Positions 33,813 to 59,842 of a DNA stretch of 59,842 nucleotides are shown here, one piece after another. The notes under the pieces are model-generated. The model saw nothing but the letters and a program-made list of their open reading frames with translations, was not told where the DNA came from and ran no database searches. The DNA is from a virus (lineage: Duplodnaviria > Caudoviricetes): the IMG/VR virus record IMGVR_UViG_3300025132_000006, positions 1 through 59,842 of that record, one strand, 5' to 3'. The translations under genes were made by a program, and so were the position numbers. Every line of letters starts with the position of its first letter. Position 1 is the first letter of the stretch.

Positions 33813-33858
33813 TGTGCATCCACATGAACTAGCAGAGTCCTGCGTTTCACGTAAGGTA

Positions 33859-34852: not shown

Positions 34853-34867
34853 TACATCTCCTTATAA

Positions 34868-34899: not shown

Positions 34900-34907
34900 G
34901 TTGCGTG

Positions 34908-35666: not shown

Positions 35667-35709
35667 AGTGCCTCCCTTCATCTTTTTGTTAGAGTCGCTA
35701 TCTCTTTAA

Positions 35710-35847
35710 TTATCTAAGTCCAATATACTCCATAGCTCTATAAACAGGCGACTGTCTACAATAGTTTAACCACGCATTTAATATAATATCAGCTTTAATC
35801 TTTTGCTCACCAATACTATTCTTAGATTGTTTTATCTTTTTGTTCAT
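35710..35847 (-). CDS. Hypothetical protein
   Basis: Likely start MNKKIK after a purine-rich RBS. Confidence 0.45.
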   Translation of the reverse strand: MNKKIKQSKNSIGEQKIKADIILNAWLNYCRQSPVYRAMEYIGLR

Positions 35848-36016
35848 TTTCTTCCCTTTCCTTGTCAAATACAAGTCTTGCAGTATTCTTTGAACCATTT
35901 ACTGCTTGAAGATATACCATAGTATACTCACACAGTCCATTAGCGTCAAGAAATGATTTAGGTAGTGTTAACCTGCCTCTATCATCTATTCTGCATCTAG
36001 TTATATACATACTCAT
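35822..36016 (-). CDS. AbrB/MraZ-type DNA-binding protein
   Basis: RIDDRGRLTLPKSF signature. Confidence 0.75.
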   Translation of the reverse strand: MSMYITRCRIDDRGRLTLPKSFLDANGLCEYTMVYLQAVNGSKNTARLVFDKEREENEQKDKTI

Positions 36017-42938: not shown

Positions 42939-45200
42939 GTGGCAAGAAAAAGTCTTAAAGTTAAAGCAGGTGAAAATCATGCATTATGGGAGCGTTCTAA
43001 TACTGCTCAAAGAAATAAATGGCAACACGTTGCTCAACAAGGATATGATTTTTATTTAAACGAACAATTATCTACAGAGGAAAAAGACGCTTTAAGAGAC
43101 TCTGGGATGCCAGATTTTATTATTAATCGTATAACACCGATTATTGAAATAATGAAATACTTTGTAACTGCAAATAGTCCTAAATGGAAAGCAGTTGGAG
43201 CTGAAGGTAGTGATGCTGATATTGCTCAAGTTCATTCTGATATTGCAGAGTATTGTTGGTATCTTTCAAATGGAAAATCAATCTATAGCAATGTAATACT
43301 CGATGCATTAACTAAAGGTGTTGGTTATTTTATGGTCGATATTGACCAAAATGCTGATTTAGGTAAAGGTGAAGTATCATTTAAAAGAGTAGAACCTTTT
43401 GATGTATTTGTAGACCCAATGAGTAGAGACTTCTTAATGAGAGATGCTACTTTTTTAATTATTCGTAAAAACTTATCTAAAACACAATTAAAACTTTTAT
43501 TACCTGATTATAAAGCTAAAATAGAAAAAGCAGCGGGTAGAAGTGACCAAATGAGTTTTTCAAAAACTGATTTTGGTGATAGAGATAGTATTATCTCAGA
43601 AGATGTAGATAGTACATATGTTCCATCTGGTGAAGATGATGAAGTTTTACCTTTTTATGAGTGCTATAAAAAAATAAGAGTTCCATTTTATAATTTACTT
43701 ATGCTTGTTCCTCCTACTGAAGAAGAAATGAAGCAAATACAAGCTGATGTTCAAAGTCAATTAGGTGAATTTAAAGCTGAAATGGAAGTTCAAATCCAAG
43801 AAAAATCAAATGAACTAGACGAAGCTGTTCAAAGAGGAGAAATAATTCCTGAAAGAGCAGAGTTAGAAAAACAAAAAATATTAAAGGATATCCAAGAAGC
43901 AATAGCACAACAAGAAATGCAACTAATGTCTCAAATGCAGGAGGCGGCATCACGAACAGAAACTAATATTGTAAGTGAAGAGGAATATAAGATATTAGTT
44001 AAGAATAAAGAAGTAGCTAAACAAATTATTGAAGAAAATAGATTTCATCAAATTAGAATAGAGCTTACTTGTAGTGTTGGAGAAGATACTTTCTTATATG
44101 AGTATGTATTACCTATTTCTGAGTATCCTATTATTCCATTTTCATATATGTATACTGGGACACCATATCCAATGTCAGCAGTTGTCCCTTTAATTGGTAA
44201 ACAACAAGAAGTGAATAAAGCACATCAAATTATGATTCATAATGCTAATCTCGCTTCTAATCTTAGATGGATTTATCAAGAGGGTTCTATCCCTGAGGAG
44301 GAGTGGGAACAATATTCATCTTCTGCAGGTGCATTACTTAAATATAGACAAGGATTTGAAGCTCCAACTCCTGTTCAACCAGCAGCTATTAATAATGCTT
44401 TCTATACAATTACTCAAGAGGGTAAGCAAGATATGGAATATATTAGTGGTATTTATTCATCAATGATGGGTAATACTAAAGAGCAACCTGATACATATAG
44501 AGGGTTACTAGCTAATGATGAGTATGGTACTAGAAGAATTAAAGCTTGGATGACTAATATTGTAGAACCTTGTTTAGAGCATTTAGGAAGAGTATTTAAA
44601 GAAATAGCTCAAAAAACCTATACTGCTAATAAAGTATTTAGAATTGTTCAACCAGAAGCTGGTCAAGCTGCGGATGCCGCTAAAGAGAAAGATGTTGAAA
44701 TTAATATTCCAATTTATAACGATTATGGTGAAGCAGTTGGGAAATGGATGGATTATGAAGGAGCTAAATTTGATATTCGTGTAGTGGCTGGTTCTTCATT
44801 ACCTCTTAATAGGTGGGCATTGTTAGAAGAATACTTCAGATGGTTTCAAGCTGGTCTTATTGACGATATTGCAATGTTAGGAGAAACAGATGTGCGAAAT
44901 AAGAAGAATATTGCAAAGAGAAAATCTTTATATGCACAACTAAAAGGTCAATTAGAACAAATGGAAGAAGCAGTTAAAGATAAAGATGGAACTATTGAAA
45001 CTCTAGAACGTCAATTAGTACAAGCAGGTATAAAAGACAAAATCAAAACTGGGGAAATGGAAGTTCGTAAGGATGTATTAAATACAGAGGCTCAACAAAA
45101 ATTATTACGAGGAATGATGCAAACTGAAATGGATACATTTAGAAAAGACATGAGAAGAGAGATGGATAAGGCAAAAGATTCTTCAAAACCTAAAGAATAG
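42939..45200 (+). CDS. Portal protein (P22-like podovirus type)
   Basis: FY..EQ, INRI.P, G.GY...D, V.PFDVFVDP.S, YPIIPF and Q.EVNK motifs; coiled-coil C-terminus; between terL and scaffold. Confidence 0.88.
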   Translation: MARKSLKVKAGENHALWERSNTAQRNKWQHVAQQGYDFYLNEQLSTEEKDALRDSGMPDFIINRITPIIEIMKYFVTANSPKWKAVGAEGSDADIAQVHSDIAEYCWYLSNGKSIYSNVILDALTKGVGYFMVDIDQNADLGKGEVSFKRVEPFDVFVDPMSRDFLMRDATFLIIRKNLSKTQLKLLLPDYKAKIEKAAGRSDQMSFSKTDFGDRDSIISEDVDSTYVPSGEDDEVLPFYECYKKIRVPFYNLLMLVPPTEEEMKQIQADVQSQLGEFKAEMEVQIQEKSNELDEAVQRGEIIPERAELEKQKILKDIQEAIAQQEMQLMSQMQEAASRTETNIVSEEEYKILVKNKEVAKQIIEENRFHQIRIELTCSVGEDTFLYEYVLPISEYPIIPFSYMYTGTPYPMSAVVPLIGKQQEVNKAHQIMIHNANLASNLRWIYQEGSIPEEEWEQYSSSAGALLKYRQGFEAPTPVQPAAINNAFYTITQEGKQDMEYISGIYSSMMGNTKEQPDTYRGLLANDEYGTRRIKAWMTNIVEPCLEHLGRVFKEIAQKTYTANKVFRIVQPEAGQAADAAKEKDVEINIPIYNDYGEAVGKWMDYEGAKFDIRVVAGSSLPLNRWALLEEYFRWFQAGLIDDIAMLGETDVRNKKNIAKRKSLYAQLKGQLEQMEEAVKDKDGTIETLERQLVQAGIKDKIKTGEMEVRKDVLNTEAQQKLLRGMMQTEMDTFRKDMRREMDKAKDSSKPKE

Positions 45201-45253: not shown

Positions 45254-46141
45254 ATGGAAAAAACTGAACAGGACAACACTCAACAAGAGTCCCCTGAAGT
45301 AGACATTATGCAATTAGAAACATCAGAAACAGCGCCAGACGACTCCAATGCCTTTTTTGAGGCACTTGACAGAGGTACGAATGGTGCAATATATGATGAA
45401 CCCTCAACACAGAGAACCTCCGAAGGTGGCAATAACAAGCCAACCGAGAGTCCTGTCGAGAGTGCTGAAGCACAAGCATCTAATAACACAGAAGCAGACA
45501 ATCTTCAGCAAAGGTATTCGGCATCTAGTAGGGAAGCGAAGCGTCTAAATGGTCGCTTATCCGAAATAGAACCGTATATGCCTATATTAGACGCAATGAA
45601 AGAAGACCCTAATTTAATTCAACATGTGAGGAATTATTTTGAGGGTGGTGGAAACGCACCAACTAGTATGAAAGAACAACTGCAATTAGATGAAGATTTT
45701 ATCTTTGATGGCAACGAAGCCTTTGATAATCCAAGCTCTGATTCTGCTCGTGTTCTTAATGCGACAATAGATGGTATGGTTCAAAGAAGGTTGTCAGATT
45801 TTTCATCAAAACAACGCTCCGAAAATCAAAGACTTACTAGTGAGAGTGATTTTAGGCAAAGACATGATATGTCCCAAGAAGAATGGGAAGATTTAGTAGG
45901 ATTTGCTAAAGATAAGAAACTCGATTTAGAAGACATTTATTACCTTAAGAACAGAGAAAATAGAGATAAGAATATAAGACAAAATGCTCAACAAGAGGTT
46001 GCAAACCAAGTGCGAAATGTACAAGGAAGACCTCAATCGTTAGCATCTACAGGCGGAGCAGCCACAGAAGAAAAATCAGCAGATGATGCAGTGTTCGACC
46101 AATTACTAGGCGGTGAGTCAATTAACCGTCTACTTGGCTAA
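45254..46141 (+). CDS. Capsid scaffolding protein
   Basis: Acidic disordered N-terminus, coiled coil RY..SSREAKRL; between portal and capsid. Confidence 0.75.
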   Translation: MEKTEQDNTQQESPEVDIMQLETSETAPDDSNAFFEALDRGTNGAIYDEPSTQRTSEGGNNKPTESPVESAEAQASNNTEADNLQQRYSASSREAKRLNGRLSEIEPYMPILDAMKEDPNLIQHVRNYFEGGGNAPTSMKEQLQLDEDFIFDGNEAFDNPSSDSARVLNATIDGMVQRRLSDFSSKQRSENQRLTSESDFRQRHDMSQEEWEDLVGFAKDKKLDLEDIYYLKNRENRDKNIRQNAQQEVANQVRNVQGRPQSLASTGGAATEEKSADDAVFDQLLGGESINRLLG

Positions 46142-46188: not shown

Positions 46189-47718
46189 ATGGCACAATCA
46201 GATGCCACCTATCCGGGTGACCATCCCTTACATTTAAAACATAGTTCGGGATTAGACGAAGGATATGGTGTATTTAATGGTTCTTCACTTTCCACAGGTG
46301 ACCTTCGGAGAAAATATAATTTTGCTGAAAGATTCAGCGAATTGGCTATTGACCAAACACCTTTTTTCCGATTGGTATCCAAGGTAGGTAAAAGACCAAC
46401 TGACGACCCTTCGTTTAAATTTACGGAGAAACGTCAATCATGGATGAAACGCTACTGTTATGTAGTAGCTCAAATCAAAACAGGCTCAACAAAAGTCTAT
46501 GACGATGCTACATTAACAGCTCATGGCGGTGATGCATCAATGGCAGTAGGTGATACTGTGAAACTATATATGGCTACTGATTATGAATCAGCTGGTAATA
46601 TACAGAATATTCACGGACAATCATCTGGTGCTATTGCAATTGGAGCGGCTGGAACAGCTCCTGAATTCCTATTACCAAACCAAATAATCCAAGTTAATCT
46701 ATCAGCTACGACTGGTGGTGGAACTGCAGTAAGTGATTATACTCTGATTAAAATATCATCAGTAGGTGCACAAGAAGCAATTACTGGTGTAGCAGAGGCA
46801 AAGTTGGTAACAGGTACTGTAGTTAAAGCAGCTAGCGGTGAGTTTACTTCTTTTTCAAGTAACGCACCAGTCTTACAAGCTTATGACAAAATTATTTCTA
46901 GCGATTTAGAAGCTAAGAGATGTTATGTTGTAGGTAACTCATATGAAGAAGGTTCTTCTTTAATGGGTAAGACATGGAAAGATAATCCATATAGTACTGG
47001 TTATGGACAGACTCAAATCTTTAGGTCTGAGTTTGGTATGACCAATACTGCTCGTGCAACTGTCCTTAAATACGAACCTAATGAATGGGCTCGTGTTTGG
47101 AGAGACAAACTTATCGAGCATAAGTGGGAAATCGAACAGACTGCTCTCTTCGGTTCACAATATACAGATGGTAGTGGAGTACAACATACTCAAGGAGCTG
47201 TTGATTATATTGTTAATTATGGAAACGTATTCTCATGGTCTACAAGTAAAAATGTAGACAATTTCATGGATGATATGTCTTCATACATTGACCCTAGATA
47301 TAATAGCTCAAAAGCTACTGTTTACTTTTGTGATACAGAAGTCTACAACTGGTTACATAAACTAGGTGGTTACTTCTCGCAAAACGTGAGTATTGATTCT
47401 CAGTTTAGCGCAGACTTAGCTATCACTGGTCGTAAGAAAGTCTTAGGACTTGATGTTACTACCATTAGTACTCCATTAGGAAGTATGAATGTAACTAGGA
47501 ATGTTGCACTTGATAGAAGCAATGTTAAGATTCTAGGAGTTAACATGAATAACGTCAGATACCGTCCTCTAGTTGGAAACGGCATTAATCGTGATACATC
47601 GATTTATGTTGGAGTACAATCTCTAGAGAATACTGGAACTGATAAACGTGTTGATATGATTCTTACAGAAGCTGGATTCGAGTGGAAGATGCCAGAATCA
47701 CACGCAGTTTGGAAATAA
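46189..47718 (+). CDS. Major capsid protein (DUF5309/SU10-like, HK97 fold)
   Basis: TPF..L, F.F.E, TQIF...F..T.TA.A, K..EHK.EIE...LFG and final E.GFE.....SH pattern. Confidence 0.88.
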   Translation: MAQSDATYPGDHPLHLKHSSGLDEGYGVFNGSSLSTGDLRRKYNFAERFSELAIDQTPFFRLVSKVGKRPTDDPSFKFTEKRQSWMKRYCYVVAQIKTGSTKVYDDATLTAHGGDASMAVGDTVKLYMATDYESAGNIQNIHGQSSGAIAIGAAGTAPEFLLPNQIIQVNLSATTGGGTAVSDYTLIKISSVGAQEAITGVAEAKLVTGTVVKAASGEFTSFSSNAPVLQAYDKIISSDLEAKRCYVVGNSYEEGSSLMGKTWKDNPYSTGYGQTQIFRSEFGMTNTARATVLKYEPNEWARVWRDKLIEHKWEIEQTALFGSQYTDGSGVQHTQGAVDYIVNYGNVFSWSTSKNVDNFMDDMSSYIDPRYNSSKATVYFCDTEVYNWLHKLGGYFSQNVSIDSQFSADLAITGRKKVLGLDVTTISTPLGSMNVTRNVALDRSNVKILGVNMNNVRYRPLVGNGINRDTSIYVGVQSLENTGTDKRVDMILTEAGFEWKMPESHAVWK

Positions 47719-47801: not shown

Positions 47802-50800
47802 ATGAAAATTTGGGAAAGAGTTAATAACATTACGGGCAACAATACAAAAGCTCGTTTTCTTGTTGAATATGTAAACGCAGGTGCTAAGTTTATACTAGCA
47901 GCCTTACCTGAGAAATTCTTATGGACTGTAGCTACAGAGACAGAAATCGTAGGTAGGGATTCTAGTGGAGTAAATAAAATAGGCAAGGGTTCTACTATTG
48001 CATATGATAAGATTTTAGCAGTATATAGATGGGATGGCACAGATGCCAATGGAAATCCTAAAAAAAGAGTAGCTGAAGAATCACCTGACAATAGTATACA
48101 TATATTTGATGAATCTAATAGTTTATTAAAAGCTACAAGCATATTTCCTAAGTTTTATAAGTTAGGAGGAAAGATTTTTATTAAACCAGACCCTGATTAT
48201 AATGATGGAGTTGGTACTTATACATATACAAAGTTAGGTGAGTCATCTACTACTACAGTTAATTCTGGGACTGGAGATAAAGGAGTAATAGTATATTCTG
48301 CTCCACCTATTATAGATGAAAATGATGATTCTTGGATATTAACTGAGTATGAAAATATTGCTATTTTTTATGCAGGGTCGTTAGACTTCTTAAGATTAAG
48401 TAGTGTATATAGAGATTTATGTAAAACAGAGATAGACGAAGTAGTTAGTGCAACAGGGTTATTAAAGAATTATAGAGATAAGGTTACTGCTTCTTCTTTT
48501 GACCCTACAAAAGCAACTGATGGTTCATCTACTATTAATATTCCTAATAAAGTACTCTCATTTAGTGTAGGCACTAGTTTACCTACATTTAGTTTTAGTG
48601 GTTCTCTTCCGTCTGATTTCGTTATTTCTTCATTATTACCTAGTAATATAACACTAACTAAAGAGCTTCCAAGTTTTTCAATAGCTGATTCTCTACCAAG
48701 TGATTTTAGTATAAGTGAAACTTTGCCAAGTAGTAATATTTCTGTTGGTTCTTCGTTACCTTCATTTTCATTTGTTGAAGCATTGCCATCTTCTTTTGTA
48801 AGTCCTTCAACTAGTCTACCTTCATTTAGTTTCTCAGGTAGTCTTCCAACTTCTATTAATGTATCTACATCTTTACCATCAGGTTCTTTTTCTAAATCAT
48901 TACCTAGTATATCGATAAATGCAGTTCCTCCAAGTGATATTAATGTAACAGAATCTCTTCCAACATTTAGTTTTACAAAAGAATTACCTTCAGAAATGGT
49001 AATAGGAGAATCTCTACCTGATGATATTGTTGTTTCATCTCCTTTACCATCTTTTAATGTAGCTTCTTCTCTTCCATCGGATTTTAATATAGAGTCTTCA
49101 TTACCTTCTAATTTTATAGTTTCAACATCTTTGCCTAGTGCTATTAATGTTGAGACTCCATTACCAAATGATTTTGCACCAGCTGAAACATTACCATCAG
49201 ATTTTAATATATCTCAAACTATTCCTACTTTTTCAGAACTTAGTCATAGTATGGTTCTATCTGGAGCCGATGACGCTATGGATAAGGCTGAGAAATTAAT
49301 AGATGGTAGTGAATTAAGTAATGAGATTGATAATGCTCAAGGATGGATAGACGATGAAGATGTTGAAATGGCTTCAGTTGTTATAAATACCGCGGCTCAA
49401 GAAATAAATAGAGCTTCAGCTTCTATTAACAAAGAAAAAACTAAATTAGAAGAATTTTCTACTAAAGTGAATCAAAAAGTAAATAAATATCAAAATGATA
49501 TAGCTAATTATAGTAATGAAGTCCAAAAAGAGCGTAATAGAATGCAATCTCAAATGGAAAAATATACTCAAGCAATTCAGAAGGAACAAGTAAGGGTTGG
49601 TTCTTCAATAGAAAAATATCAAGCAGAGTTACAAAAAGAATTTCAAAGAGTATCAAGTGAAACTCAAAAATATCAGAATGAGGTTCAAAAAGAAGCTGAA
49701 AGAGTTCAAATAGAACTAGGAAAGTATAAACAAGAAGTAGATAAAGAAACACAAAGAGTTAAAAATGGTCTTGAAAAACATCAAGCGGAAGTTACTAAAC
49801 AAGCTCAAAAGTCTAAAACTGAGGCTGATGCATATGGTGCAGAGCTTCAAAAAGAAACTCAAAAAGCAACATCAAAAATTAATAAATATCAACAAAATGT
49901 TTCTAAAGAGTCTCAAAGAGTCCAAACAGAAGTTTCTAAGTACTCTAATGAACTACAGAAAGAAGTTGCATCTTCTCAGAGACAAGCTGAAAAATATAAT
50001 CTACAATTACAAACAGAAATTAATAGAGTATCTTCTGGTTTAAATAAATTTCAACAAGAAATTGCTAAAGATATACAATCTTATCAAAAAGAAATAGAAG
50101 TTTACACTGCTGAGATACAAGGAGAGGCTGCTAAAGCAAATATAGATATAAATAACTATCAAGCTGAATTAGCTAAAGAAACTCAACGTCAAAACTCAGA
50201 ATTAGCTAAATATCAAGCTGATTTACAAAAATCTATACAAGTTTTTACTCTAGACCTTAATAAATATGCATCAGAGGTTCAAAAAGAATCTGCAAGATTA
50301 AATGCTGATGTATCAAGATATGCACAAGCTAATAATAAAGAAATTGCAAGATATAATGGTGAGTTGCAAAAGTATCAAGCAGATTTAGCAAAAGAAGTTC
50401 AATTATTTAATACTCAAGTTGCTTCTTATCAAGCTGATGTACAAAAGGAATCTTCTAGAGTTAGCTCTGGCGTAGCAAAATATAATTCTTCTCTTCAGAA
50501 AGAATCTCAAAGAGTTAGTATGGAAATAAATTCCTATCAAGCTGAATTAGGTAAAGAATCACAAAGAATTGGGACTGATGTACAAAAATATGGTGCAGAA
50601 GTTCAAAAAGAAACTCAGAAAATAAATTCAGGAATTGCCAAGTATCAAGCTGAGCTTCAGAAAGAAACTTCAGAATTTGGAACAAAGATTCAAAAGTTCA
50701 ATGCTGACCTTCAAAAAGAATCAACTAAATTACAAAAAGATATACAACAATTTACTCTTGATATAAATAATTATTCCAGTTTAATACAAGCTAAAAGCGG

Positions 50801-51023
50801 TAAGTTTCAACTAGATATGACAGAAGCTAATTCATATTTGCAGGAAGCAGGTACTAAAATACAAGCATCTCAATTATATGCACAAAAAAGTCAAGTTTCT
50901 ATTAGCTCATCTAGGGATTATTACCAGAGAGCAGTATCTGAATTATCAGCAATTACTGGTGCAGTAGTAGCTCCAGAACAACAACAAGCTAGTCAAAGAC
51001 GAGAGCAAGGGAAAACTTCATGA
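47802..51023 (+). CDS. Head-tail adaptor-like protein with a long repeat extension
   Basis: Adaptor-type N-terminal domain (FY..GGKIFI.P.P...IVY..PP...IFYA), 23 LP repeats and 23 18-aa helical repeats. Confidence 0.65.
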   Translation: MKIWERVNNITGNNTKARFLVEYVNAGAKFILAALPEKFLWTVATETEIVGRDSSGVNKIGKGSTIAYDKILAVYRWDGTDANGNPKKRVAEESPDNSIHIFDESNSLLKATSIFPKFYKLGGKIFIKPDPDYNDGVGTYTYTKLGESSTTTVNSGTGDKGVIVYSAPPIIDENDDSWILTEYENIAIFYAGSLDFLRLSSVYRDLCKTEIDEVVSATGLLKNYRDKVTASSFDPTKATDGSSTINIPNKVLSFSVGTSLPTFSFSGSLPSDFVISSLLPSNITLTKELPSFSIADSLPSDFSISETLPSSNISVGSSLPSFSFVEALPSSFVSPSTSLPSFSFSGSLPTSINVSTSLPSGSFSKSLPSISINAVPPSDINVTESLPTFSFTKELPSEMVIGESLPDDIVVSSPLPSFNVASSLPSDFNIESSLPSNFIVSTSLPSAINVETPLPNDFAPAETLPSDFNISQTIPTFSELSHSMVLSGADDAMDKAEKLIDGSELSNEIDNAQGWIDDEDVEMASVVINTAAQEINRASASINKEKTKLEEFSTKVNQKVNKYQNDIANYSNEVQKERNRMQSQMEKYTQAIQKEQVRVGSSIEKYQAELQKEFQRVSSETQKYQNEVQKEAERVQIELGKYKQEVDKETQRVKNGLEKHQAEVTKQAQKSKTEADAYGAELQKETQKATSKINKYQQNVSKESQRVQTEVSKYSNELQKEVASSQRQAEKYNLQLQTEINRVSSGLNKFQQEIAKDIQSYQKEIEVYTAEIQGEAAKANIDINNYQAELAKETQRQNSELAKYQADLQKSIQVFTLDLNKYASEVQKESARLNADVSRYAQANNKEIARYNGELQKYQADLAKEVQLFNTQVASYQADVQKESSRVSSGVAKYNSSLQKESQRVSMEINSYQAELGKESQRIGTDVQKYGAEVQKETQKINSGIAKYQAELQKETSEFGTKIQKFNADLQKESTKLQKDIQQFTLDINNYSSLIQAKSGKFQLDMTEANSYLQEAGTKIQASQLYAQKSQVSISSSRDYYQRAVSELSAITGAVVAPEQQQASQRREQGKTS
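48579..49250 (+). repeat. 23 degenerate 9-11-aa LP(S/T)xFxxxxS repeats
   Basis: Counted from LPTFSFSGS to IPTFSELSHS. Confidence 0.85.
49503..50744 (+). repeat. 23 consecutive 18-aa helical repeats (consensus about xKYQAELQKExQRVxxxI)
   Basis: From ANYSNEVQKERNRMQSQM to QKFNADLQKESTKLQKDI; 23 x 54 nt = 1242 nt. Confidence 0.9.
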
Positions 51024-51298
51024 CAATATTAGAAATTATGGAAAGAGCAAATTCTAGAGATACGAATCTTGTAATAGCTTTTGTAAAAGATGCAGTTATG
51101 AGGATACAATCTAACTCAGAAGAAAATTTAAAAGTTGCTAAACAAACTATTACTAAAAATACTAGAGATTATGACTTACCTACTGATTTAGTTGCTTTAA
51201 AAAGTGTTAGTATATTAGATACTGAAGATGATGATAAATATAAAAGAATTGCTAGATTAACAGGAGAACCTAACGTAACTGAGGATACAAATCCGTAA
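51020..51298 (+). CDS. Adaptor/tail-tube-A-like protein, N-terminal-type half
   Basis: MT..EI..R and Y.LP.D...L..V motifs. Confidence 0.6.
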   Translation: MTILEIMERANSRDTNLVIAFVKDAVMRIQSNSEENLKVAKQTITKNTRDYDLPTDLVALKSVSILDTEDDDKYKRIARLTGEPNVTEDTNP

Positions 51299-51753
51299 TG
51301 AGTTTTGATACCGCTAGAAATTTTGTTTATAGACTTCATGGGAAAACATTAAGACTATGGAGATATAGGAGAACTCCAGCTAAAGATACAGATACAGAAG
51401 GAAGAATAAGTACTTCTGGTTGGCATTCAATAGTATATCCTGATGAAACAATAACAAATGGATTAAGAATTGAATATACGGCTATTAATAAGCCTTTTGT
51501 TCAAGAAGACCCTGATTCAAATTCTAGTCTTACTGAGGTTACGAATCCGACAGAATCTAGTCATGTAAATCTTAATAGAATGTTATCTTTAGCAGTAGTA
51601 GATTATGTAAAAGCTTATTTAGCAGAAAGAGAAGGAAATCTTCAAGCTAAAGAGTATTTTATGAGAGAATTTTTTAATAAATTGGCTGACAATGAAAGTA
51701 ATAAAAATCATGCATATGTTGCTCAGGCAGTCAGCCCATATGCAGTAAAATAG
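51298..51753 (+). CDS. Adaptor/tail-tube-A-like protein, C-terminal-type half
   Basis: Y...G..L.L, LRIEY.A and LAVVDYV.A.L motifs. Confidence 0.6.
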   Translation: MSFDTARNFVYRLHGKTLRLWRYRRTPAKDTDTEGRISTSGWHSIVYPDETITNGLRIEYTAINKPFVQEDPDSNSSLTEVTNPTESSHVNLNRMLSLAVVDYVKAYLAEREGNLQAKEYFMREFFNKLADNESNKNHAYVAQAVSPYAVK

Positions 51754-52870: not shown

Positions 52871-54060
52871 TGGCTATAACCGCTAAAGTAACAAATGCTA
52901 GTTCTACTAAAGCAGTAGGCACTCAAAATGCTACTAAAACTCAAGATAGTTTTAATGTAAAAGCAGGGGCAATTTCAGTTGATTTAACTGGTAGAATTTC
53001 TACTGCTAGAAATGTTAATGATGCTTTACAACTATTAGATGCAAGAACAGCGGCTCAAACATCTGCTCCAAATCCGATGACTGAGGGAGATATATGGTAT
53101 AAGACAGATACAGATGAATTATATATAAGAACAGATAGTACTTGGAATGAAATAGTAGTTAGTGGAGTTTCAGGTACAATTTATGGAGGAACTGACACAA
53201 CTCCTTTAAATAGGAACACAATTAAAAGGTCTGCTTATAATGCATCTAATGTTCCCTCAAATAATAGTATTTTAGCAGGTGAACTTAATTTTATACAAGG
53301 AAGCAAAAAGCTTTATATTGGAAGGGAAAATGATGGTACTGGGACTATTGAAGCTTATCATATCCCTCTAGCAACAGATTTATTACCTAATTCTACTAGT
53401 TTTACATTATCAGATAATAGTGGAAATGCAAACGATAATAGTCAAGTACTTGCATTGGCTAGTGGAGTCGCAGGTAATGGATTAAGTCTATCAAATCACG
53501 CTTTATCGGTAAATCCTGATAATGATAGTATTGAACTAAATAGTGATGCATTAAGAATTAAACCTTCAAAAGTTTTAGTAAATGTAAGTGATGGTAGCAA
53601 TTCCACGGGGATTACATTAGGAAATACTGCCACATTCTCAGGAACTGCAAATGAGACAACTGTAGCAGAGAATAACGGAACGATTACTGTTGGTCTGCCT
53701 GATAATGTTACAATACAAGGTAATTTAACTGTTGGTGGGACAACTACTACAATTAATTCATCTACTGTAACTATTGATGACCCTATCTTTACATTAGGGG
53801 GAGATACAAATCCCTCTTCGGATGACAATAAGGACAGAGGAATAGAATTTAAATGGCATAATGGTAGCTCTCATAAATTAGGTTTTTTTGGAATGGATGA
53901 TAGTGATGGAAAATTTAAGTATATACCAGATGCTACAAATAGTAGTGAAGTATTCTCAGGTTCTGTTGGTAGTGCAGTATTCAACGATGTAGCAATATCA
54001 ACAATTAATGGAAACGCAGTATTTGATAGTAACTCAACTGTGGATGGTGGGACTTTCTAA
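52870..54060 (+). CDS. Tail fibre/collar protein
   Basis: GDIWY.TDT..LYI, GELNF...KLYIG, GNLTVGGTTTTINS..VTIDDPI.TLG and DRGIEF motifs; ends VDGGTF. Confidence 0.8.
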   Translation: MAITAKVTNASSTKAVGTQNATKTQDSFNVKAGAISVDLTGRISTARNVNDALQLLDARTAAQTSAPNPMTEGDIWYKTDTDELYIRTDSTWNEIVVSGVSGTIYGGTDTTPLNRNTIKRSAYNASNVPSNNSILAGELNFIQGSKKLYIGRENDGTGTIEAYHIPLATDLLPNSTSFTLSDNSGNANDNSQVLALASGVAGNGLSLSNHALSVNPDNDSIELNSDALRIKPSKVLVNVSDGSNSTGITLGNTATFSGTANETTVAENNGTITVGLPDNVTIQGNLTVGGTTTTINSSTVTIDDPIFTLGGDTNPSSDDNKDRGIEFKWHNGSSHKLGFFGMDDSDGKFKYIPDATNSSEVFSGSVGSAVFNDVAISTINGNAVFDSNSTVDGGTF

Positions 54061-57000
54061 TGGCTAATACTATTAAAATTAAAAGAAGTGGAACTTCTGG
54101 AGATTCTCCAACTTCAGGAGAACTACAACATGGTGAATTAGGGATTAATTATGCAGATGGTAAATTATTCTTTAAAAACTCTAGTAATGTAGTACAAGAA
54201 TTATTAACAAGTCCAGGTACTTCAAATGGGCAATTATTATTTGCTAATTCTAGTAGTAATTTTGAAGGGGATAGTAATTTATTTTGGGATAACACGAATA
54301 AAAGACTTGGTATAGGTACAGCCTCTCCCACAGAAAAACTTCATGTAGAAGGAGCAATACAACAAACTAAGATAAAAATTTATAATAGTGGTAATAGTGG
54401 TAATATAGAACAGACTGGTGCTTTTGGTGGTGGAACAATGTTTTTTAAACAACTTGGTTCTAACCACGATATAAGATTTCAAACCAATAAAGCTGGTTCA
54501 ACTACAACTGCTTTAGCTATTGATGGTTTAACACATAATATTGGTATAGGGACAGAATCGCCTAGCTTGTCCTATGGTGGCGGTTTGCATATAAAAAATG
54601 CAAGTAATGTAGCAAATTTAAAAGTTAGTAGTGGTAGCTCAACTGGGTTTGATTTATGGCAAGATACTGGCGGTAATGCTTATGTAATTAATCACGATAA
54701 TGCTGGGATATTATTTAAGACTAATGGTGGAGATAGGCTTTATATTAAAAGTGATGGCGATGTTGGTATTGGTACATCCTCTCCGACAAAAGGGAAATTA
54801 GAAGTTTATGGTAATGGAGCAGATACTACATTAGCAATACATGAAGATGGAGGAAGTCATAAAGCACAATTACACCTTAGAAGTGGTGGCAATGATGTAA
54901 AATTACATACAAGTGCATCTGATAGTAAATTTTATATAGATACAGAAAATGTATCAAAAGCATTTACTATAGCAACTGATGGAAAGACTGGCATAGGCAC
55001 AGACTCTCCTACTCATGGGAAACTACAAGTAAATCCAGGTTCAAATAGTACTACTGGTCTTGCAATATGGGGTGCAAATGATGGTATAAAAATTCAAAGA
55101 GCTAATGGTTCTAATGACGGAGCGTTTGGTCACATTACTTTTACAACTAATGATTGGATTCACCTAAAAACATATTCAGAAACCAAAGGTATTGGTGCAG
55201 ATATAATTGGTGGAGCTAACAGCGGTATCAATCCAGCTAACAATTACATTCACTTTAGTGGCTATGATAAAATATTTAGTCGTGTAGGCACTACTCAGTT
55301 GACAATGGGCAATGGTAAAGTTTATTTTGAAAATGTTAATGTCGGCATAAATACATCTTCTCCTACTCTTAGTAAATTACAAATAAATACATCCTCTAGC
55401 ACAAGAGGATTAGTAATAAATGCTACTGATAGCAATGCTTCTTACATGCAGTTTTCAAATTCAACAACTGGAACTGGTACAAGTCAAGGACTTCAAGTGG
55501 GTTTACAAGTAGATGAATCTGCTTTTATAGACTTAAAGTATTCAAGCCATTTAGCAATTAAGACATCTGGTGCTGAAAGAATGAGAATTACTTCAACAGG
55601 AAGCGTCGGTATCGGTACAACCTCACCAACAACAATACACCATGTTCACAATTCAGGAGCAACTACTGGTTGGACACATTATACAAATTCAAGTACTGGA
55701 ACGACTGGGAATGATGGTACTCATATAGGTACTAATGGAGTACACGCTTATTTATGGAATAGAGAAGCTGGTGATATTTATTTTGGAACTCAAGCTACTA
55801 CAAGAATGCTTGTTCAAAGTGGTGGTAATGTTGGAATTGGCACAACTTCGCCTAGTAATACGCTCCATGTTAATGGAACTGTTAGAGTTGACAGTTTATT
55901 ATCTTTTAGTGGCAATAGTTATATACAAGATGTAAGTAATAATTATTTAAAGCTAAGAATAGCTAATGGAGATTATTTTGCTATTCATGGTGGTGCATCT
56001 GATGCAGAATATATGAGAGTTGCTAACGATGGTAAAGTCGGCATCGGAACAGACTCTCCTGTTGCTAATTTACATATTTATAAGGATACTACTACTAATA
56101 ACGACAAGTTATTTAGAATATATAATGGCAGTGGATTGCAGTGGGAAATACAAGGCGATGGTAGCATGAGTGGCTATCTTGGTAATCCTATAGATAGTGT
56201 TACAATGATTAGAGGTCCATGGCAAACTGATTTATCAGTATCAGGTGGTAGTGCTAGTAGTGAAGCTGCTGCTGGTAATGTAGTTTTTAAAACAAATGAT
56301 GTTGAAAAAATGAGGCTTACTAAGACTGGACTACTCGGTATTGGTACATCCTCGCCTCAAGAAAAATTAGATATTTCTGCTGGTAATATAAGATTAGATA
56401 ATCAGCAACTTTTGACATTCGCAACTACAGATGCTAATAGTGGAAGAGTAGCTATTCAAGGCGATGAAGGAAGTGACTTTTTAAGATTTAGAACTGATAA
56501 TGCTAATAGAATGGCAATTACGAATACTGGTGTTGGTATTGGGACAATTTCTCCTAGTGTACCTCTTCACATTTCAACAACAAGTACAAATCCACTTTTA
56601 TTAGAAAATACTACTCAAGATGCTAGTGGCGGTGCAATACTAAATAAAATTTCTTTTAAACACAACGCTACATTAAATACAAGTTTAGAACATGGTTCGA
56701 TTGGCTACTATGCTGGTGAAACATGGGATGATACAAAATTTTATCAAACAATAAATAACGGAAATAGCGCACAAGTTGTAGCTGAAAATGTTCGTGGTAA
56801 TACTTGGAAATGGTATACTGGCGGAACTTCAAGAATGGTTATTGATTCGTCAGGCAAGGTCGGTCTAGGCACAGCCTCGCCTACTGCACCATTGCATATT
56901 AAAACAGCAATGTCTACTAACACAAACACAGATGCTTTAAAAGTAGAAGGTAATTATTTACTTGCAATATTAGGTGGAGATGACGCTCTATATAACGCTG

Positions 57001-59842
57001 GTAAATTAGAATTATATCAAGATGGTAGTACAAAAAATGTTCATTTAAGTGGAACTGCAAGTGATTCTTACCCAAGTTATATTTTAGGTCGTCTTGGCAT
57101 CGGCACATCCTCGCCTCTGCAAAAATTACATGTAAATGGCATTATACAAACTCAATATGAACTAAGGTCGTCAAGTGGTAATGGACTATACCTTCAAGCA
57201 TTAGGCTCAAGTGGAGGATTTACACATAGGTTTCAAGATAATGGAACTGATAGAGTAACTATGAGCGGTGATGGAATACAACTTCCATTAAAAGCTAGTG
57301 ACACTAGTCACAAATTAAAATTTACTGCTTCAACATCTGCTGAAATATATGCAACTGGGTATGGAGATTTAAATTTAATTGGTGGGTTAAGTAATGCTAT
57401 TAAATCTAGAGATAGTACAATTTTTGGCGATTCAGCTAATGCTAGAAGAGTCTATATTAACCATCAAACTACTGATAATAGTTCAGTTAGAAATATTCTT
57501 AGTACTATGCCAAAATTTTCTATGTATAGTGGGACTAGTGGGCATTTTGGATTTTATACTTATGGAAGTAGTGGTGCTTATAATGCTATTACAAATGTAC
57601 ATACTGATAACAATACTAGTGGATTAAAATTAAATTATAGAACTGGTGGTAATGATACTGAAGCAATGGAAATTGGTAGTGATGGTAAAATTAATATTGG
57701 TAATTCAACTGTAACTGCTTCAGGTGGTGTTGCTCAGACTGCAAGTCTTCGTGCAAAAGGTATAGATATTGATGAGCTAGTTTTTTCAGGAGGTTCTCCT
57801 AGATATGCTAATCATGTATGGAAGTCTAATAGTTCTGACCCCAATACTTTAGATTTGGTTGGCAGAACATTTGGTGGGTCTACAATCACTTATGGTAAAA
57901 TGATACTTGGTCAAAATGCTTCTGATTTACATCAGATATTTGGTCTTGGTGGTTCTAATGTAGGCATAGGAACTGAAACTCCTAGTGCTAATACAAAGCT
58001 TGATGCATCAGGTCCAATACAAGCTCCTTCTTTTTATATAGGTGCTAATCCATATCATGGAGTAATAAAACATATAGCCAATGGCAATATTGAACATCAT
58101 CCAAGAGCTAGTTATGATATAAACTTTGTAATGGGTACTAATAATGCTTTTACTGTTAGTACTTCTTCATTGCAAAATGGAGCAGATGGCATTGGTAACA
58201 CATCAAAAAATTTAGGTGGACTGCCAGTTCGTATTTATTCTAGTGAACCTTCTTTTATTATTGATGGACATGTTACTGCTGACCAATACTGGGGAACAAG
58301 GTCTGGCGGTACTAATGAAAAATTAATGAGTATGCAGATGAGCAACGACCAAAAGATGAGTTGGAAAGCATGGAATGATAATGGTACTGTAAAATATGAT
58401 GATATGCTTCTTCTTGATGGTGGTACTGGTAAAGTTGGGATTGGAACAGATTCTCCTAGTGCTACTGTAACTATGAAAGGCAGTAATTCTAATCTGTTAC
58501 ATTTTGACCCAGCTAATGCCTCTATTTATAGTAGTACTGCTGGTATTTATATAAGCGGAAATAATGGAAATTCTGCGTTAATTGTTGGTAGTAGTGGTGC
58601 AACTCCTACATTACAAGCCAATAGTGGTGGTAATATCGGAGTGCTTTCTAATCTTGGTATTGGAACAACCTCACCTGCAAAAGCACTTCATGTTTCTCAA
58701 ACTGGAACTGGAGATTTAGCAAGATTTGAATCAACTGGAGAGAGCTTTAGCATTCAGATGTTAGCTGATGATTCAGGTACACCAGTTAATTACCAATTGA
58801 CACATACTGGTGACAAGTTTGTTCATTATAATAATGGTAATGTTGTTCACTCTAGTTTAAAGACTGGAGAGGTTGGCATAGGTACAGCCTCGCCTAGTGC
58901 TAAGCTTGATGTTGCTGGAGATGCAAATATTGACACAAAACTATGGTTAGGTAATACTCATACTGGTGGTCAAACTTGGGCTAGTATGGGTAATAAAGGT
59001 AATGAGTTAGTAATTGATGGTGGTGCAGATTCAGGTATGACAATAGTAACTGGGACATCAAACGCTGGTTATATTAACCATAACAATTATAATAATGGTA
59101 ACTATCAACATATAAAATTTGATGCGGCTAATGCTGGAATATTTTTTAAAACTGCGGGAACACTTGAAACTGCAGTTATAGATAACAATACTTCTTTTTC
59201 TTTTAATAGAGCAACTGTAGTTGATAATAATTTTTTAGGACATATAGAATTTAAAGGCAATAATGGAACTGAAACGCATACTTATTCCAAGATTTCTGCA
59301 CAATGTTTAAACTTTGAAGATGGTGCTGAATATTCAGATGTAAAAATATATGGTTCAAATGGTAGTAATGGTCTTGAAGAAATAGCCAAGTTTTATGCTA
59401 GACAATTTCTTATGACTAATAGTGGTTCAAAGGTTGGTATCCGAACAGCATCTCCTAGTACTGCTCTTCATGTGGCTAGTGGTGCTATAAGATTAGATAG
59501 TAGTCAGCAATTACAATTTGGTGGTGCTTCTACTCACATTGATGGCGATAGTGGGCATATGTCTTTTGATGTTAATTCAGCATTAAGACTAAAAATTGAT
59601 TCTGTAGGGCGAGTTGGAATTGGGACTGGTTCACCTAATTATAAATTAGATATTATTCATGATGCAGATGAACAATTTAGAGTAGGTAGGTCAGGTGGTA
59701 AATATGTAGCTATCAGAGATGATGTAATGCAGTTTACTGGTATGACTGGTAATGGCATGAGGATTCAAACTTCTGATAACGCTGATATAAAATTTAGCTC
59801 TGGTACTGGTGATACTATTTTTGATTATGCTGGTGCTGGGGG
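54060..59842 (+). CDS. Giant modular tail fibre, 5' part (continues across the origin to 1561; ~2414 aa in total)
   Basis: ATG at 54060 overlaps the upstream TAA and translates MANTIKIKRSGTSGDSPTSGELQHGELGINYADGKLFFK (common tail-fibre N-terminus). It is absent from the ORF track, consistent with no stop before the window end. Position 59757 (= position 14) is in frame (5697/3 = 1899 codons). It carries repeated (K/N)VGIGTxSP..KLHV motifs. Confidence 0.9.
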   Translation, partial: MANTIKIKRSGTSGDSPTSGELQHGELGINYADGKLFFKNSSNVVQELLTSPGTSNGQLLFANSSSNFEGDSNLFWDNTNKRLGIGTASPTEKLHVEGAIQQTKIKIYNSGNSGNIEQTGAFGGGTMFFKQLGSNHDIRFQTNKAGSTTTALAIDGLTHNIGIGTESPSLSYGGGLHIKNASNVANLKVSSGSSTGFDLWQDTGGNAYVINHDNAGILFKTNGGDRLYIKSDGDVGIGTSSPTKGKLEVYGNGADTTLAIHEDGGSHKAQLHLRSGGNDVKLHTSASDSKFYIDTENVSKAFTIATDGKTGIGTDSPTHGKLQVNPGSNSTTGLAIWGANDGIKIQRANGSNDGAFGHITFTTNDWIHLKTYSETKGIGADIIGGANSGINPANNYIHFSGYDKIFSRVGTTQLTMGNGKVYFENVNVGINTSSPTLSKLQINTSSSTRGLVINATDSNASYMQFSNSTTGTGTSQGLQVGLQVDESAFIDLKYSSHLAIKTSGAERMRITSTGSVGIGTTSPTTIHHVHNSGATTGWTHYTNSSTGTTGNDGTHIGTNGVHAYLWNREAGDIYFGTQATTRMLVQSGGNVGIGTTSPSNTLHVNGTVRVDSLLSFSGNSYIQDVSNNYLKLRIANGDYFAIHGGASDAEYMRVANDGKVGIGTDSPVANLHIYKDTTTNNDKLFRIYNGSGLQWEIQGDGSMSGYLGNPIDSVTMIRGPWQTDLSVSGGSASSEAAAGNVVFKTNDVEKMRLTKTGLLGIGTSSPQEKLDISAGNIRLDNQQLLTFATTDANSGRVAIQGDEGSDFLRFRTDNANRMAITNTGVGIGTISPSVPLHISTTSTNPLLLENTTQDASGGAILNKISFKHNATLNTSLEHGSIGYYAGETWDDTKFYQTINNGNSAQVVAENVRGNTWKWYTGGTSRMVIDSSGKVGLGTASPTAPLHIKTAMSTNTNTDALKVEGNYLLAILGGDDALYNAGKLELYQDGSTKNVHLSGTASDSYPSYILGRLGIGTSSPLQKLHVNGIIQTQYELRSSSGNGLYLQALGSSGGFTHRFQDNGTDRVTMSGDGIQLPLKASDTSHKLKFTASTSAEIYATGYGDLNLIGGLSNAIKSRDSTIFGDSANARRVYINHQTTDNSSVRNILSTMPKFSMYSGTSGHFGFYTYGSSGAYNAITNVHTDNNTSGLKLNYRTGGNDTEAMEIGSDGKINIGNSTVTASGGVAQTASLRAKGIDIDELVFSGGSPRYANHVWKSNSSDPNTLDLVGRTFGGSTITYGKMILGQNASDLHQIFGLGGSNVGIGTETPSANTKLDASGPIQAPSFYIGANPYHGVIKHIANGNIEHHPRASYDINFVMGTNNAFTVSTSSLQNGADGIGNTSKNLGGLPVRIYSSEPSFIIDGHVTADQYWGTRSGGTNEKLMSMQMSNDQKMSWKAWNDNGTVKYDDMLLLDGGTGKVGIGTDSPSATVTMKGSNSNLLHFDPANASIYSSTAGIYISGNNGNSALIVGSSGATPTLQANSGGNIGVLSNLGIGTTSPAKALHVSQTGTGDLARFESTGESFSIQMLADDSGTPVNYQLTHTGDKFVHYNNGNVVHSSLKTGEVGIGTASPSAKLDVAGDANIDTKLWLGNTHTGGQTWASMGNKGNELVIDGGADSGMTIVTGTSNAGYINHNNYNNGNYQHIKFDAANAGIFFKTAGTLETAVIDNNTSFSFNRATVVDNNFLGHIEFKGNNGTETHTYSKISAQCLNFEDGAEYSDVKIYGSNGSNGLEEIAKFYARQFLMTNSGSKVGIRTASPSTALHVASGAIRLDSSQQLQFGGASTHIDGDSGHMSFDVNSALRLKIDSVGRVGIGTGSPNYKLDIIHDADEQFRVGRSGGKYVAIRDDVMQFTGMTGNGMRIQTSDNADIKFSSGTGDTIFDYAGAG
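59744..59842 (+). repeat. Direct terminal repeat, right copy
   Basis: Identical to 1-99. Confidence 0.95.

Follow-up and report, generated by a model that had tools for sequence, protein, structure and literature searches.

A candidate hairpin whisker inserted in a phage protein with a head-to-tail adaptor fold

Phage head-to-tail adaptors have been seen as compact portal-tail rings with docking sites for separate fibres. Neck fibres with a long helical shaft are known from the whiskers of T4, whose fibritin (wac) is a separate protein that forms a parallel trimeric heptad coiled coil with a C-terminal foldon, while the exchangeable apolipoproteins and apolipophorin III build long amphipathic helices from short repeats of 11 or 22 residues. 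In excerpts of the published account of phage SU10 (PMC9509320), the adaptor is described as a dodecamer whose C-terminal embracing loop is wedged between the portal clip domains and from whose helix bundle the fibres branch off. The closest analogue of the protein described here is bacterial: the streptococcal AgI/II stalk (A3VP1, PDB 3iox), which excerpts of two reports (PMC3707005, PMC3178794) present as a folded-back chain in which helical repeats pair with extended proline-containing repeats, exposed prolines packing on aromatics, to give a long thin stalk with a module at its far end.

The protein considered here, P0001 (1073 aa), is encoded at positions 47802..51023 on the plus strand of a 59,842-nucleotide stretch of DNA from an uncultured marine phage, the window, and matches its own record (IMGVR_UViG_3300025132_000006) at 100%. 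Its open reading frame and translation describe an adaptor-fold protein with a two-armed repeat insertion. As with the T7 and SU10 adaptors, the gene sits in a block of portal, scaffold, capsid and tail/adaptor genes. Upstream (46189..47718, plus strand) lies the gene of an SU10-type major capsid protein (PF17236, E 1.2e-19), and downstream (51020..51753, plus strand) are ORFs of 92 and 151 aa that together appear to make up a split SU10-type adaptor: the 92-aa ORF matches PF24175 (SU10_adaptor) at 27.8 bits against a cut-off of 27, and the Atlas structure of the 151-aa ORF has a TM of 0.59 to a 247-aa SU10-adaptor-domain cluster. The same split is seen in L063. In all 67 loci (67 of 67) that extend far enough, a major capsid-like gene lies upstream, and the 92-aa and 151-aa neighbours follow downstream in 57 and 55 of 57 loci, respectively. 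Profile comparison between the P0001 family and the 92-aa neighbour found no similarity, and Pfam searches of the five largest other ORFs returned no family.

The N-terminal part of P0001 (aa 1-246; 47802..48539, plus strand) is delimited by structure matches, many invariant columns and the secondary structure of an AF2 model, with helices at residues 3-43, a beta domain at 45-166 and helices at 184-230. The C-terminal part (aa 1030-1073 plus stop; 50889..51023, plus strand) consists of a closing helix and a strongly conserved tail; in the homologue alignment columns 1037-1068 are near-invariant, and 53 of 54 aligned proteins have a constant 32 aa beyond Y1041. Fold comparison was carried out on the AF2 model of an armless 292-aa homologue, a model of middling confidence (base models: pLDDT 61-67, pTM 0.41-0.49). 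It contains the elements of the T7 gp11/SU10 gp11 adaptor (tail tubular protein A), namely an N-terminal helix bundle, a beta domain resembling the 'fibre dock', a closing helix and a C-terminal tail. The best Foldseek match was the SU10 tail (7z47_B, E 1.1e-5, prob 1.00), followed by the podophage tail or neck entries of phicrAss001, A4, GP4, VP1, Pa223 and KHP30. VIA-align gave Z 12.7 to Pa223 9nwi_A (188/207 residues aligned), 12.6 to A4 9k09_d (196/216) and 10.9 to SU10 7z47_A (181/227), and also matched the PhiM1 portal and adaptor complex 8vb4_M, HK97 gp6 and P22 gp4; named BFVD matches were 'Head to tail adaptor' and 'Tail tubular protein A'. In P0001's own model, A4 and GP4 chains aligned at Z 10.5 and 10.2 across residues 1..1063, with adaptor chains running up to model residue 1062-1063, which ties the C-terminal end to the N-terminal part. 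The models thereby bear out the 'adaptor-like' N-terminal domain of an earlier, sequence-only reading and show a single T7/SU10-type head-to-tail adaptor fold built from the N-terminal part and the last ~45 residues. Since both protein ends form this one fold, the insertion must leave and rejoin the same base, an independent reason for the out-and-back chain which that reading had proposed. At the sequence level no adaptor Pfam family was matched: PF24175 gave no hit to P0001 at E<=0.01 or to the 292-aa form at E<=1, and is not among the 25 most frequent families across 46 members. P0001 thus differs from the T7 and SU10 adaptors in lacking a PF24175 match while coexisting with a separate split SU10-type adaptor, in having ~790 aa inserted between the last two bundle helices, and in carrying its putative fibre in the same chain rather than as a docked trimer.

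The insertion opens with an outbound arm (aa 247-483; 48540..49250, plus strand) of 24 LP-led units, each of 9-13 aa. Twenty-three LP-led units of 9-11 aa had been recognized before, and these are confirmed at aa 260-483 (eight of 9 aa, thirteen of 10 aa and two of 11 aa; beginning with LP in 21, PP in one and IP in one); the 24th, of 13 aa and IP-led, begins at aa 247. The longest chain comprises 24 LP-type motifs at 9-13 aa spacing, compared with 5 in 2000 shuffles of the region. The arm is rich in Ser, Pro, Leu and Phe, has a net charge of -16, and holds 29 prolines in 237 aa, essentially one per unit; each unit carries 3-4 hydrophobic residues in a conserved pattern of two classes. The AF2 monomer assigns it no regular secondary structure (pLDDT ~28). 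Tandem Repeats Finder reported no DNA-level arrays with a period of ~30 or ~54; the P0001 repeats are old and maintained at the protein level. A triple beta-helix was considered for the LP array and set aside: rising by ~4.8 Å per unit, such a fold would be too short to close a hairpin against a 70-nm helix, and the slope of the arm co-variation described below would be left unexplained.

The outbound arm ends in a conserved helix-loop-helix with invariant columns, the cap or 'tip' (aa 484-549; 49251..49448, plus strand). It carries an invariant acidic motif in which E519 and D520 are invariant and L516, E522 and M523 nearly so; it is kept in armless forms of 285-297 aa and missing from forms of 249-261 aa. 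The linker of the sequence-only reading is therefore present, though with the boundaries used here it measures 66 aa and not ~85 aa. The return arm (aa 550-1029; 49449..50888, plus strand) contains 26 in-register 18-aa repeats (550-1017) in a single register with zero indels, and position 3 is Y, F or H in 26 of 26. At lag 18 the arm has a BLOSUM self-score of 1.62, where shuffles give -0.39 ± 0.09 (z = 22); 18 (7+11) is the dominant period, with lags 18, 36 and 54 scoring 1.64-1.89, and heptad periodicity was not found in the shaft. The uninterrupted 18-aa repeats with an aromatic third position thus stand as previously described, but their exact number does not: the count is 22-24 when motifs are scored strictly and 26 in register, and because it depends on where the array is cut, the proposed equality of 23 with 23 is boundary-dependent. 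AF2 predicts a single helix at 521-1052, a proline-free stretch, with pLDDT dips at 666-678, 775-778 and 906-927. As 18 residues of helix complete exactly 5 turns, positions 3, 7, 14 and 18, which are hydrophobic, line up as a straight, narrow stripe of 4-5 hydrophobic residues per 18.

Six Pfam families matched P0001 at E<=0.01, five of them below curated cut-offs. The apolipoprotein-type scores are sub-threshold (PF01442, 22.0 vs 90 bits; PF07464, 24.1 vs 36.3 bits), with ApoLp-III matched at E<=1 in 34 of 46 members and Apolipoprotein A1/A4/E in 28 of 46. PF21009 (Suprabasin GxHH repeat) scores above its cut-off (49.7 vs 31 bits) and covers residues 810-981; as that stretch is without any His and the GxHH motif is absent from the whole of P0001, we read the match as a likeness of composition and period. 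Searches of the PDB by sequence returned just apolipoprotein-type chains, at E>=0.09. Compared with the apolipoproteins, whose long amphipathic helices it resembles, P0001 has a period of 18 and matches below the cut-offs, and the likeness is one of composition and periodicity.

The sequence-only reading had offered co-variation of the two repeat regions across homologues as its test. Motif counts and regex anchors proved unreliable in divergent clades, and HMM anchors and lengths were therefore used in their place: three conserved anchors were located with HMMs and arm lengths measured either side of the conserved cap. The survey took in 274 proteins; all three anchors could be placed in 242, among which 216 unique sequences represented 66 distinct length pairs. 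The two lengths do co-vary, with r=0.995 and a slope of 1.66 among the 216 unique full-length proteins, and r=0.988 when armless forms are excluded (n=165). Phylogenetic contrasts computed on a tree of the conserved parts (n=206) correlated at r=0.888; 56 of the 59 sizeable ones had the same sign, and independent leaf pairs changed in the same direction in 26 of 26 cases (r=0.992, slope 1.68). The family ranges from 0 to ~27 repeats, and homologues of 285-297 aa have neither arm. Because both arms begin and end in the same base, they must cover equal distance. Relative to the armless form, the ratio of helix side to other side is 1.44-2.07 per length class; at the helix rise of 1.5 Å per residue this corresponds to 2.2-3.1 Å per outbound residue, never above the established rise of an extended or PPII chain. 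Among distant relatives (23 cluster representatives with an outbound side of >=40 aa, compared with weak anchors and without phylogenetic correction), the ratio is higher the more proline the outbound arm contains (Spearman 0.68, p 4e-4): its median is 1.49 where that arm is Pro-rich (n=11) and 0.95 where it is Pro-poor and helical-looking (n=8), as in P0222 (182/150 aa).

Strict unit-for-unit pairing, in which each LP unit docks on one helical repeat, is not borne out by this comparison. Homologues that share a helix arm of 484 aa have anywhere between 289 and 311 aa on the other side, and as the helix side goes from 304 to 322 aa the other side gains just ~5 aa. P0046 (144/274) and P0040 (122/226) have ~3 surplus helical repeats each, and those of P0046 are uncompensated in the other arm. 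Charge complementarity between the arms does not discriminate: of 165 proteins, 164 have an acidic LP arm, but the helix arm is near neutral (positive in 91, negative in 56). A role of the repeats as a head-length ruler was rejected because contigs are of similar size with ~27 repeats (60,258 and 60,294 bases) and without any (53,449 and 56,880 bases).

Contact between the arms was sought in structural models and in the positions of indels. The AF2 monomer of P0001 (54-sequence alignment; mean pLDDT 60.7, pTM 0.41) shows no arm-to-arm docking, but a two-chain prediction pairing the helix arm with the LP arm of a short homologue, L037, scored 0.50 (runs 0.50, 0.47 and 0.56) against 0.00 for the best control, a result the tool terms 'weak support'. 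By comparison, 58 of 80 solved complexes attain the tool's mark, as do 2 of 110 mismatched pairs; just 7 of those 80 complexes, but both of those mismatches, do so with scores <=0.60. The runs share >=62% of contacts, and the pLDDT of the LP partner is 65-66 beside the helix arm and 40 with an unrelated chain 1. The two-chain prediction weakly supports direct strand-on-helix docking, and the helix stripe and the hydrophobic residues of the LP units could bury each other. In addition, indel positions in one arm, counted from the cap, tend to match those in the other, with an overlap of 0.50 against 0.27 for a shifted null (22 independent pairs, Wilcoxon p 0.002); antiparallel and parallel registers (0.50 vs 0.39, p 0.19) are not separated.

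We regard a hairpin whisker inserted in an adaptor-fold neck protein as the best explanation of these data and as a reasonably probable one; co-variation and out-and-back topology favor it, while strict unit docking is not borne out. In the model we propose, aa 1 to ~230 and ~1030-1073 would fold into the head-to-tail adaptor of a virion neck protein, and the middle ~790 aa would form an insertion built as a hairpin. The chain would run out through 24 LP-led units of ~10 aa in an extended, non-helical conformation, turn in the conserved 66-aa acidic helical cap, and return as a single unbroken alpha-helix with ~27 of the 18-residue repeats; most likely the extended arm would follow the hydrophobic stripe of the helix at ~10 residues per 27 Å. 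We infer this strand-on-helix docking, which would give every subunit a slender rod ~70 nm long, presumably in 12 copies if the adaptor ring forms as in SU10 and T7, and probably projecting from the neck as the adaptor-fold models suggest. The ~492 helical residues inserted in P0001 would correspond to ~74 nm, and the ~143 of the L037 type to ~21 nm. Evolution would have adjusted rod length between 0 and ~27 repeats by gains and losses paired across the two arms. With low confidence, we suggest that the rod serves as a whisker, holding out the conserved cap to a distance that differs between lineages so that it can first touch the host surface or another part of the virion.

The same topology could arise with no specific unit-by-unit interface if adjacent subunits join their helix arms, by way of the hydrophobic stripe, in coiled-coil fibres (6 dimers or 4 trimers per ring, for instance) and the LP arm runs beside them as a near-taut tether, an arrangement that we consider unlikely. 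Closure of the adaptor fold already forces sufficient length on the LP side, the LP arm is disordered in the AF2 monomer, unit parity is loose (about +/- 1-2 units), and a 7+11 hydrophobic stripe is typical of straight coiled coils. A tether, however, sets a lower length bound alone, whereas the observed relation is tight in both directions (r 0.99); the LP units keep their conserved two-class hydrophobic pattern, the stripe is narrow, and the gain in LP-arm pLDDT and the score in the two-chain prediction also argue, weakly, for an interface. The sub-threshold ApoLp-III and Apolipoprotein A1/A4/E matches, the amphipathic helix and the three pLDDT dips, which could be hinges, might instead point to an apolipoprotein-like, folded-back helical bundle, a compact knob on the neck or a lipid-binding module, which the LP arm wraps or spaces. 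This appears very improbable to us, as the five Pfam matches of this kind all fall under curated cut-offs, 468 aa pass without a proline or a break in the 18-residue register, and a bundle explains neither the linear arm relation with its extended-versus-helical slope nor a ratio near 1 where the first arm looks helical.

The location of the hairpin is a separate question, to which a hairpin rod could accommodate itself either way. P0001 could be an adaptor paralogue that sits off the portal as a head fibre or decoration protein, with the 92-aa and 151-aa pair as the true adaptor; its gene position would be that of SU10 gp10 and phi29 gp8.5. The gene does lie between the capsid gene and the SU10-type adaptor, like gp10 in the excerpted SU10 account (PMC9509320), and PF24175 is matched by the neighbour and not by P0001. 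In that same account, however, gp10 is predicted to be immunoglobulin-like (PMC9509320), whereas the base of P0001 matches whole adaptor chains, its conserved C-terminal tail included, for which reason identity with SU10 gp10 or a phi29-type head fibre was set aside; and the C-terminal tail is nearly invariant, as would be expected of a portal-embracing element, the role we infer for it. We consider an off-portal location improbable, although the split SU10-type adaptor next door is a competing candidate for the place on the portal. Returning to the hairpin whisker in the neck, a further elaboration, to which we attach very little credence, would make it a latch: the LP strand would be a removable cover over the hydrophobic stripe of an apolipoprotein-like amphipathic helix of ~70 nm, and on contact with the host envelope it would peel away from the cap downwards, baring helices (up to 12 per neck) that might bind lipid or lipopolysaccharide, so that the virion would be tethered and drawn to the surface with a reach set by the paired, quantised arms.

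The sequence-only reading knew of no described phage protein built in this way, and our searches found none; the AgI/II stalk nevertheless provides a bacterial analogue. P0001 reverses the order of AgI/II, with the extended arm first and the helix second, has ~1 Pro per ~10 aa and thus not a true polyproline II arm, bears at its far end a 66-aa helical cap and not a lectin-like domain, and is a putative phage neck protein rather than a cell-wall adhesin, with a pairing that is proposed and not solved. Homology to AgI/II was not detected, as no AgI/II family is among the 6 Pfam matches of P0001 and none was returned by the PDB sequence search. With the whiskers of T4 it would share a neck location and a long helical shaft, but compared with fibritin its shaft has period 18, is inserted into an adaptor fold and comes back to the base. 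Full-text literature searches, judged by titles and abstract openings, found no description of an adaptor with such an insertion. With P0001, the armless form or the capsid protein as tblastn query, no match was found among 50,697 phage records, and cluster look-ups returned 'hypothetical protein', 'apolipoprotein A1/A4/E family protein' (a MAG) or spurious names only. The lineage comprises 216 unique proteins and, in a wider search, 92 clusters at 50% identity, none of them named.

A marine phage lineage thus appears to grow a fibre from the adaptor itself. The family offers a natural titration, from 0 to ~27 repeats, in which two chemically different arms hold the length ratio of a helical to an extended chain. 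The pairing of strand and helix, if real, would be a second independent invention, after AgI/II, of an alpha-helix/extended hybrid stalk, and would provide a simple designable rod with length steps of ~2.7 nm; were the latch to prove true, it would be the first viral zipper of an alpha-helix and an extended strand, and a new adsorption device. These findings raise the question of what role a conserved acidic cap may play, at a distance of 0-70 nm from the neck, in adsorption in the ocean.

The window, 59,842 bases long and carrying direct terminal repeats, is a complete virus record. Its plus-strand ORF 47802-51023 encodes the 1073-aa protein P0001 and comes after three genes: 42939-45200 for a P22-type portal, 45254-46141 probably for a scaffold, and 46189-47718 for a major capsid protein of the SU10 type. 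Translation of the ORF gives a conserved N-terminal part (aa 1-246), an outbound arm of 24 proline-punctuated units (aa 247-483), a conserved 66-aa segment, the cap (aa 484-549), a return arm of 18-aa repeats in a single unbroken register (aa 550-1017) and a conserved C-terminal 44 aa. The sequence-only reading had described 23 LP-led units of 9-11 aa, and these were recovered along with a further, 24th unit; 23 of the 24 fall in this size range and 21 of those 23 begin with LP. The aromatic residue it placed at position 3 of the 18-aa repeats was likewise confirmed (Y, F or H in 26/26 rows). Its equality of 23 and 23 repeats depends on where the boundaries are drawn: there are 23 outbound units of 9-11 aa, but helical counts vary between 22 and 26. 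Both arrays greatly exceed chance expectation, as the lag-18 score of the helical array has z = 22 against shuffles and the LP array forms a chain of 24 motifs versus a maximum of 5 in 2000 shuffles. Over the P0001 gene no repeat with a period of about 30 or 54 was found at the DNA level, indicating that the repeats are old.

Elsewhere in the window, five very large plus-strand ORFs of 939 aa (3602-6421), 997 aa (6421-9414), 3059 aa (13248-22427), 1004 aa (22415-25429) and at least 1927 aa (54060-59840) match no Pfam family at E<=0.001. The last runs past the record end and, the record having direct terminal repeats, may carry on into the 5'-open frame at 2-1561. The region of about 25500-36000 is a block transcribed divergently from the structural genes, with minus-strand ORFs and a reversal in sign of both GC skew and AT skew.

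The base of the protein, that is, the N-terminal part and the C-terminal end together, matches no adaptor family in sequence. Its fold was approached through homologues of 285-297 aa in which the cap is present and both arms are absent. The AF2 model of a 292-aa armless form (pLDDT 67, pTM 0.49) found its best structure matches among chains of podophage tail and neck structures. Foldseek returned SU10 7z47_B (E 1.1e-5), then phicrAss001, A4, GP4, VP1, Pa223, KHP30 and B2, while VIA-align returned Pa223 (Z 12.7, 188/207 aligned), A4 (Z 12.6, 196/216) and SU10 (Z 10.9, 181/227), with explicitly named adaptors at lower ranks (PhiM1 portal and adaptor complex, HK97 gp6, P22 gp4, Sf6 gp7). We assume that the SU10 chains of 227-228 residues are gp11, as their length and the two conformers described for SU10 suggest. 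Named matches in BFVD were 'Head to tail adaptor' and 'Tail tubular protein A'. In the model of P0001 itself (pLDDT 60.7, pTM 0.41), the A4 and GP4 chains align across residues 1..1063, and both ends of the protein therefore belong to one fold. These models identify the base as a predicted T7/SU10-type adaptor by fold and place the repeats where the chain passes from the second-last to the last helix of an adaptor-type bundle, as an insertion. Since the repeats would be inserted within one base fold, a chain leaving the base must return to it, and this predicted reason for an out-and-back path is independent of the repeats. An extra segment of ~60-70 aa, absent from P0001, occurs in the base beta domain of homologues P0006, P0025, P0026, P0041-P0051 and L056, at one of two sites (about columns 60-135 and 260-330 of homologue alignment A3).

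Co-variation of the two repeat regions across homologues, a test set beforehand, was strongly seen. Among 274 homologues gathered from two protein searches, 80 viral contigs and cluster members, small HMMs were used to locate three anchors, placed where the N-terminal part ends, at the cap and at the C-terminal part; 242 had all three and a complete C-terminus (216 unique), the other 32 being fragments or cap-less forms. The length from the first anchor to the cap (X) and from the cap to the last anchor (Y) form 66 distinct pairs in the 216 unique proteins with r = 0.995 and a slope of 1.66, and r = 0.988 after leaving out 51 armless proteins. Relatedness does not explain the correlation: on a tree built from the conserved parts only, 206 phylogenetic contrasts gave r = 0.888 with the same sign in 56/59 sizeable contrasts, and X shifted in the same direction in all 26 independent leaf pairs differing in Y by at least 10 aa (r = 0.992, slope 1.68). 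Length matching of the two arms is thus established. Unit parity is loose, as at Y = 484 X spans 289 to 311, and homologues P0046 and P0040 carry a surplus of about 3 helical repeats. The clearest exception is P0046 against its close relative P0042 (76-78% identity in the arms), where the helix arm differs by 55 aa and the outbound arm by 1 aa; the ratio of 2.07 is still inside the physical limit. The length series of the 216 unique proteins contains no forms between 0 and about 5.6 helical repeats: 51 are armless, the next class already has ~5.6, and none has 1-5. In two homologues (249 and 261 aa) the cap motif itself is missing as well.

The geometry of the arms is consistent with a hairpin. 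AF2 predicts one unbroken helix from 521 to 1052. Hydrophobic residues occupy positions 3, 7, 14, 18 and partly 11 of the repeat, within about 80 degrees on a helix of 3.6 residues per turn, and the stripe runs straight because each 18-residue repeat completes 5 turns. P0001 exceeds the armless form by 492 residues on the helix side and by 286 on the outbound side, and the ratio of these excesses ranges from 1.44 to 2.07 across length classes. At a rise of 1.5 A per helical residue, each outbound residue covers 2.2-3.1 A, at or below the established PPII and beta rises and never above them; therefore the outbound arm would always be long enough to reach along the whole helix and is seldom much longer. 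By this reckoning the P0001 rod would be about 70 nm long.

Distant relatives provided a natural control. When the armless form was used as a phmmer query against the whole library, 92 cluster representatives matched at E <= 0.001; the distant ones share the overall plan but differ in arm chemistry: the outbound arm is Pro-, Ser- and Thr-rich in P0255, P0271, P0239 and P0261, and Pro-poor, Ala-rich and so presumably helical in P0222. In the 23 representatives that have every anchor and an X of at least 40, where the anchors are weak and kinship is ignored, the arm ratio increases with outbound-arm proline content (Spearman 0.68, p 4e-4), from a median of 0.95 for arms of <=2% Pro (n=8) to 1.49 for those of >=6% Pro (n=11). 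A ratio rising with proline is what a closed hairpin predicts.

Unit-by-unit docking of LP units on helical repeats, as the sequence-only reading proposed, is plausible. The length match counts in its favor, since a loose tether would not need an X-Y relation that is tight in both directions; the loose unit parity counts against it. Two hydrophobic patterns are conserved among the LP units, a 9-mer LP[TS]FSF.. and a 10-mer LPS.[FIL].[IVL].., whose hydrophobic residues could fill the narrow helix stripe. When the two arms were aligned independently in 22 independent pairs and distances were measured from the cap, indels tended to overlap at matching distance (0.50; shifted null 0.27; p 0.002), and one of the clean matches sets 33 aa against 61 aa at the same level; antiparallel and parallel registers were not separated (0.50 vs 0.39, p 0.19). 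The AF2 monomer of P0001, in which LP-helix contacts were to be sought, gave the LP arm a pLDDT of about 28, which counts against docking. Two-chain prediction with the helix arm and LP arm of the short homologue L037 scored 0.50 (runs 0.50, 0.47, 0.56) against a best control of 0.00, graded as weak support on a benchmark where the mark was reached by 58/80 solved complexes and 2/110 mismatched pairs, scores of 0.60 or under comprising 7 of the 80 solved complexes and both passing mismatches. The runs share at least 62% of contacts, and the LP arm has pLDDT 65-66 with the helix arm versus 40 beside an unrelated chain.

In the published accounts of the streptococcal AgI/II stalk, an alpha-helical and a PPII repeat region in the same chain wind around each other and hold a distal domain outward (PMC3707005, PMC3178794). 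The P0001 rod would work the same way through a pairing that we infer, but membership of the AgI/II family is ruled out by the lack of homology, the reversed arm order and the single proline per unit. Apolipoprotein family membership was also rejected, all matches being below threshold, and the sole above-threshold match, the Suprabasin GxHH repeat, was set aside, as P0001 has no GxHH motif. Searches of phage records, protein clusters and the literature found no named relative, cultured phage or publication with such an adaptor. We read P0001 as an adaptor that carries its own whisker, made of two arms matched in length.

Directly downstream, two plus-strand ORFs look like a split SU10-type adaptor. 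The product of the 92-aa ORF (51020-51298; 6876-7154 in homologue locus L063) matches the N-terminal part of the SU10 adaptor family (PF24175, 27.8 bits, cut-off 27), and the Atlas structure of the 151-aa ORF (51298-51753; 7151-7612 in L063; 151-153 aa over both loci) has TM 0.59 to a 247-aa SU10-adaptor-domain cluster. These ORFs lie downstream of the P0001-type gene in 57/57 and 55/57 loci. Their stop/start overlap is 1 nt in the window and 4 nt in L063, and the split thus looks like a conserved feature, not a sequencing error. With the adaptor-fold P0001, the phage therefore has two adaptor-fold products, which may stack or share one ring in alternation, or of which one may have taken up another place.

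The SU10 adaptor is described as a dodecamer with a C-terminal embracing loop wedged between portal clip domains and with long fibres branching off the adaptor helix bundle (PMC9509320). The C-terminal tail of the P0001 family is nearly invariant and, by analogy, would hold the portal, with up to 12 whiskers leaving the ring. The cap motif is invariant in armed and armless forms alike, and the cap looks like the end that does the work or nucleates, set at a distance characteristic of each lineage. With low confidence, we propose that the whisker may be used for reach or first contact.
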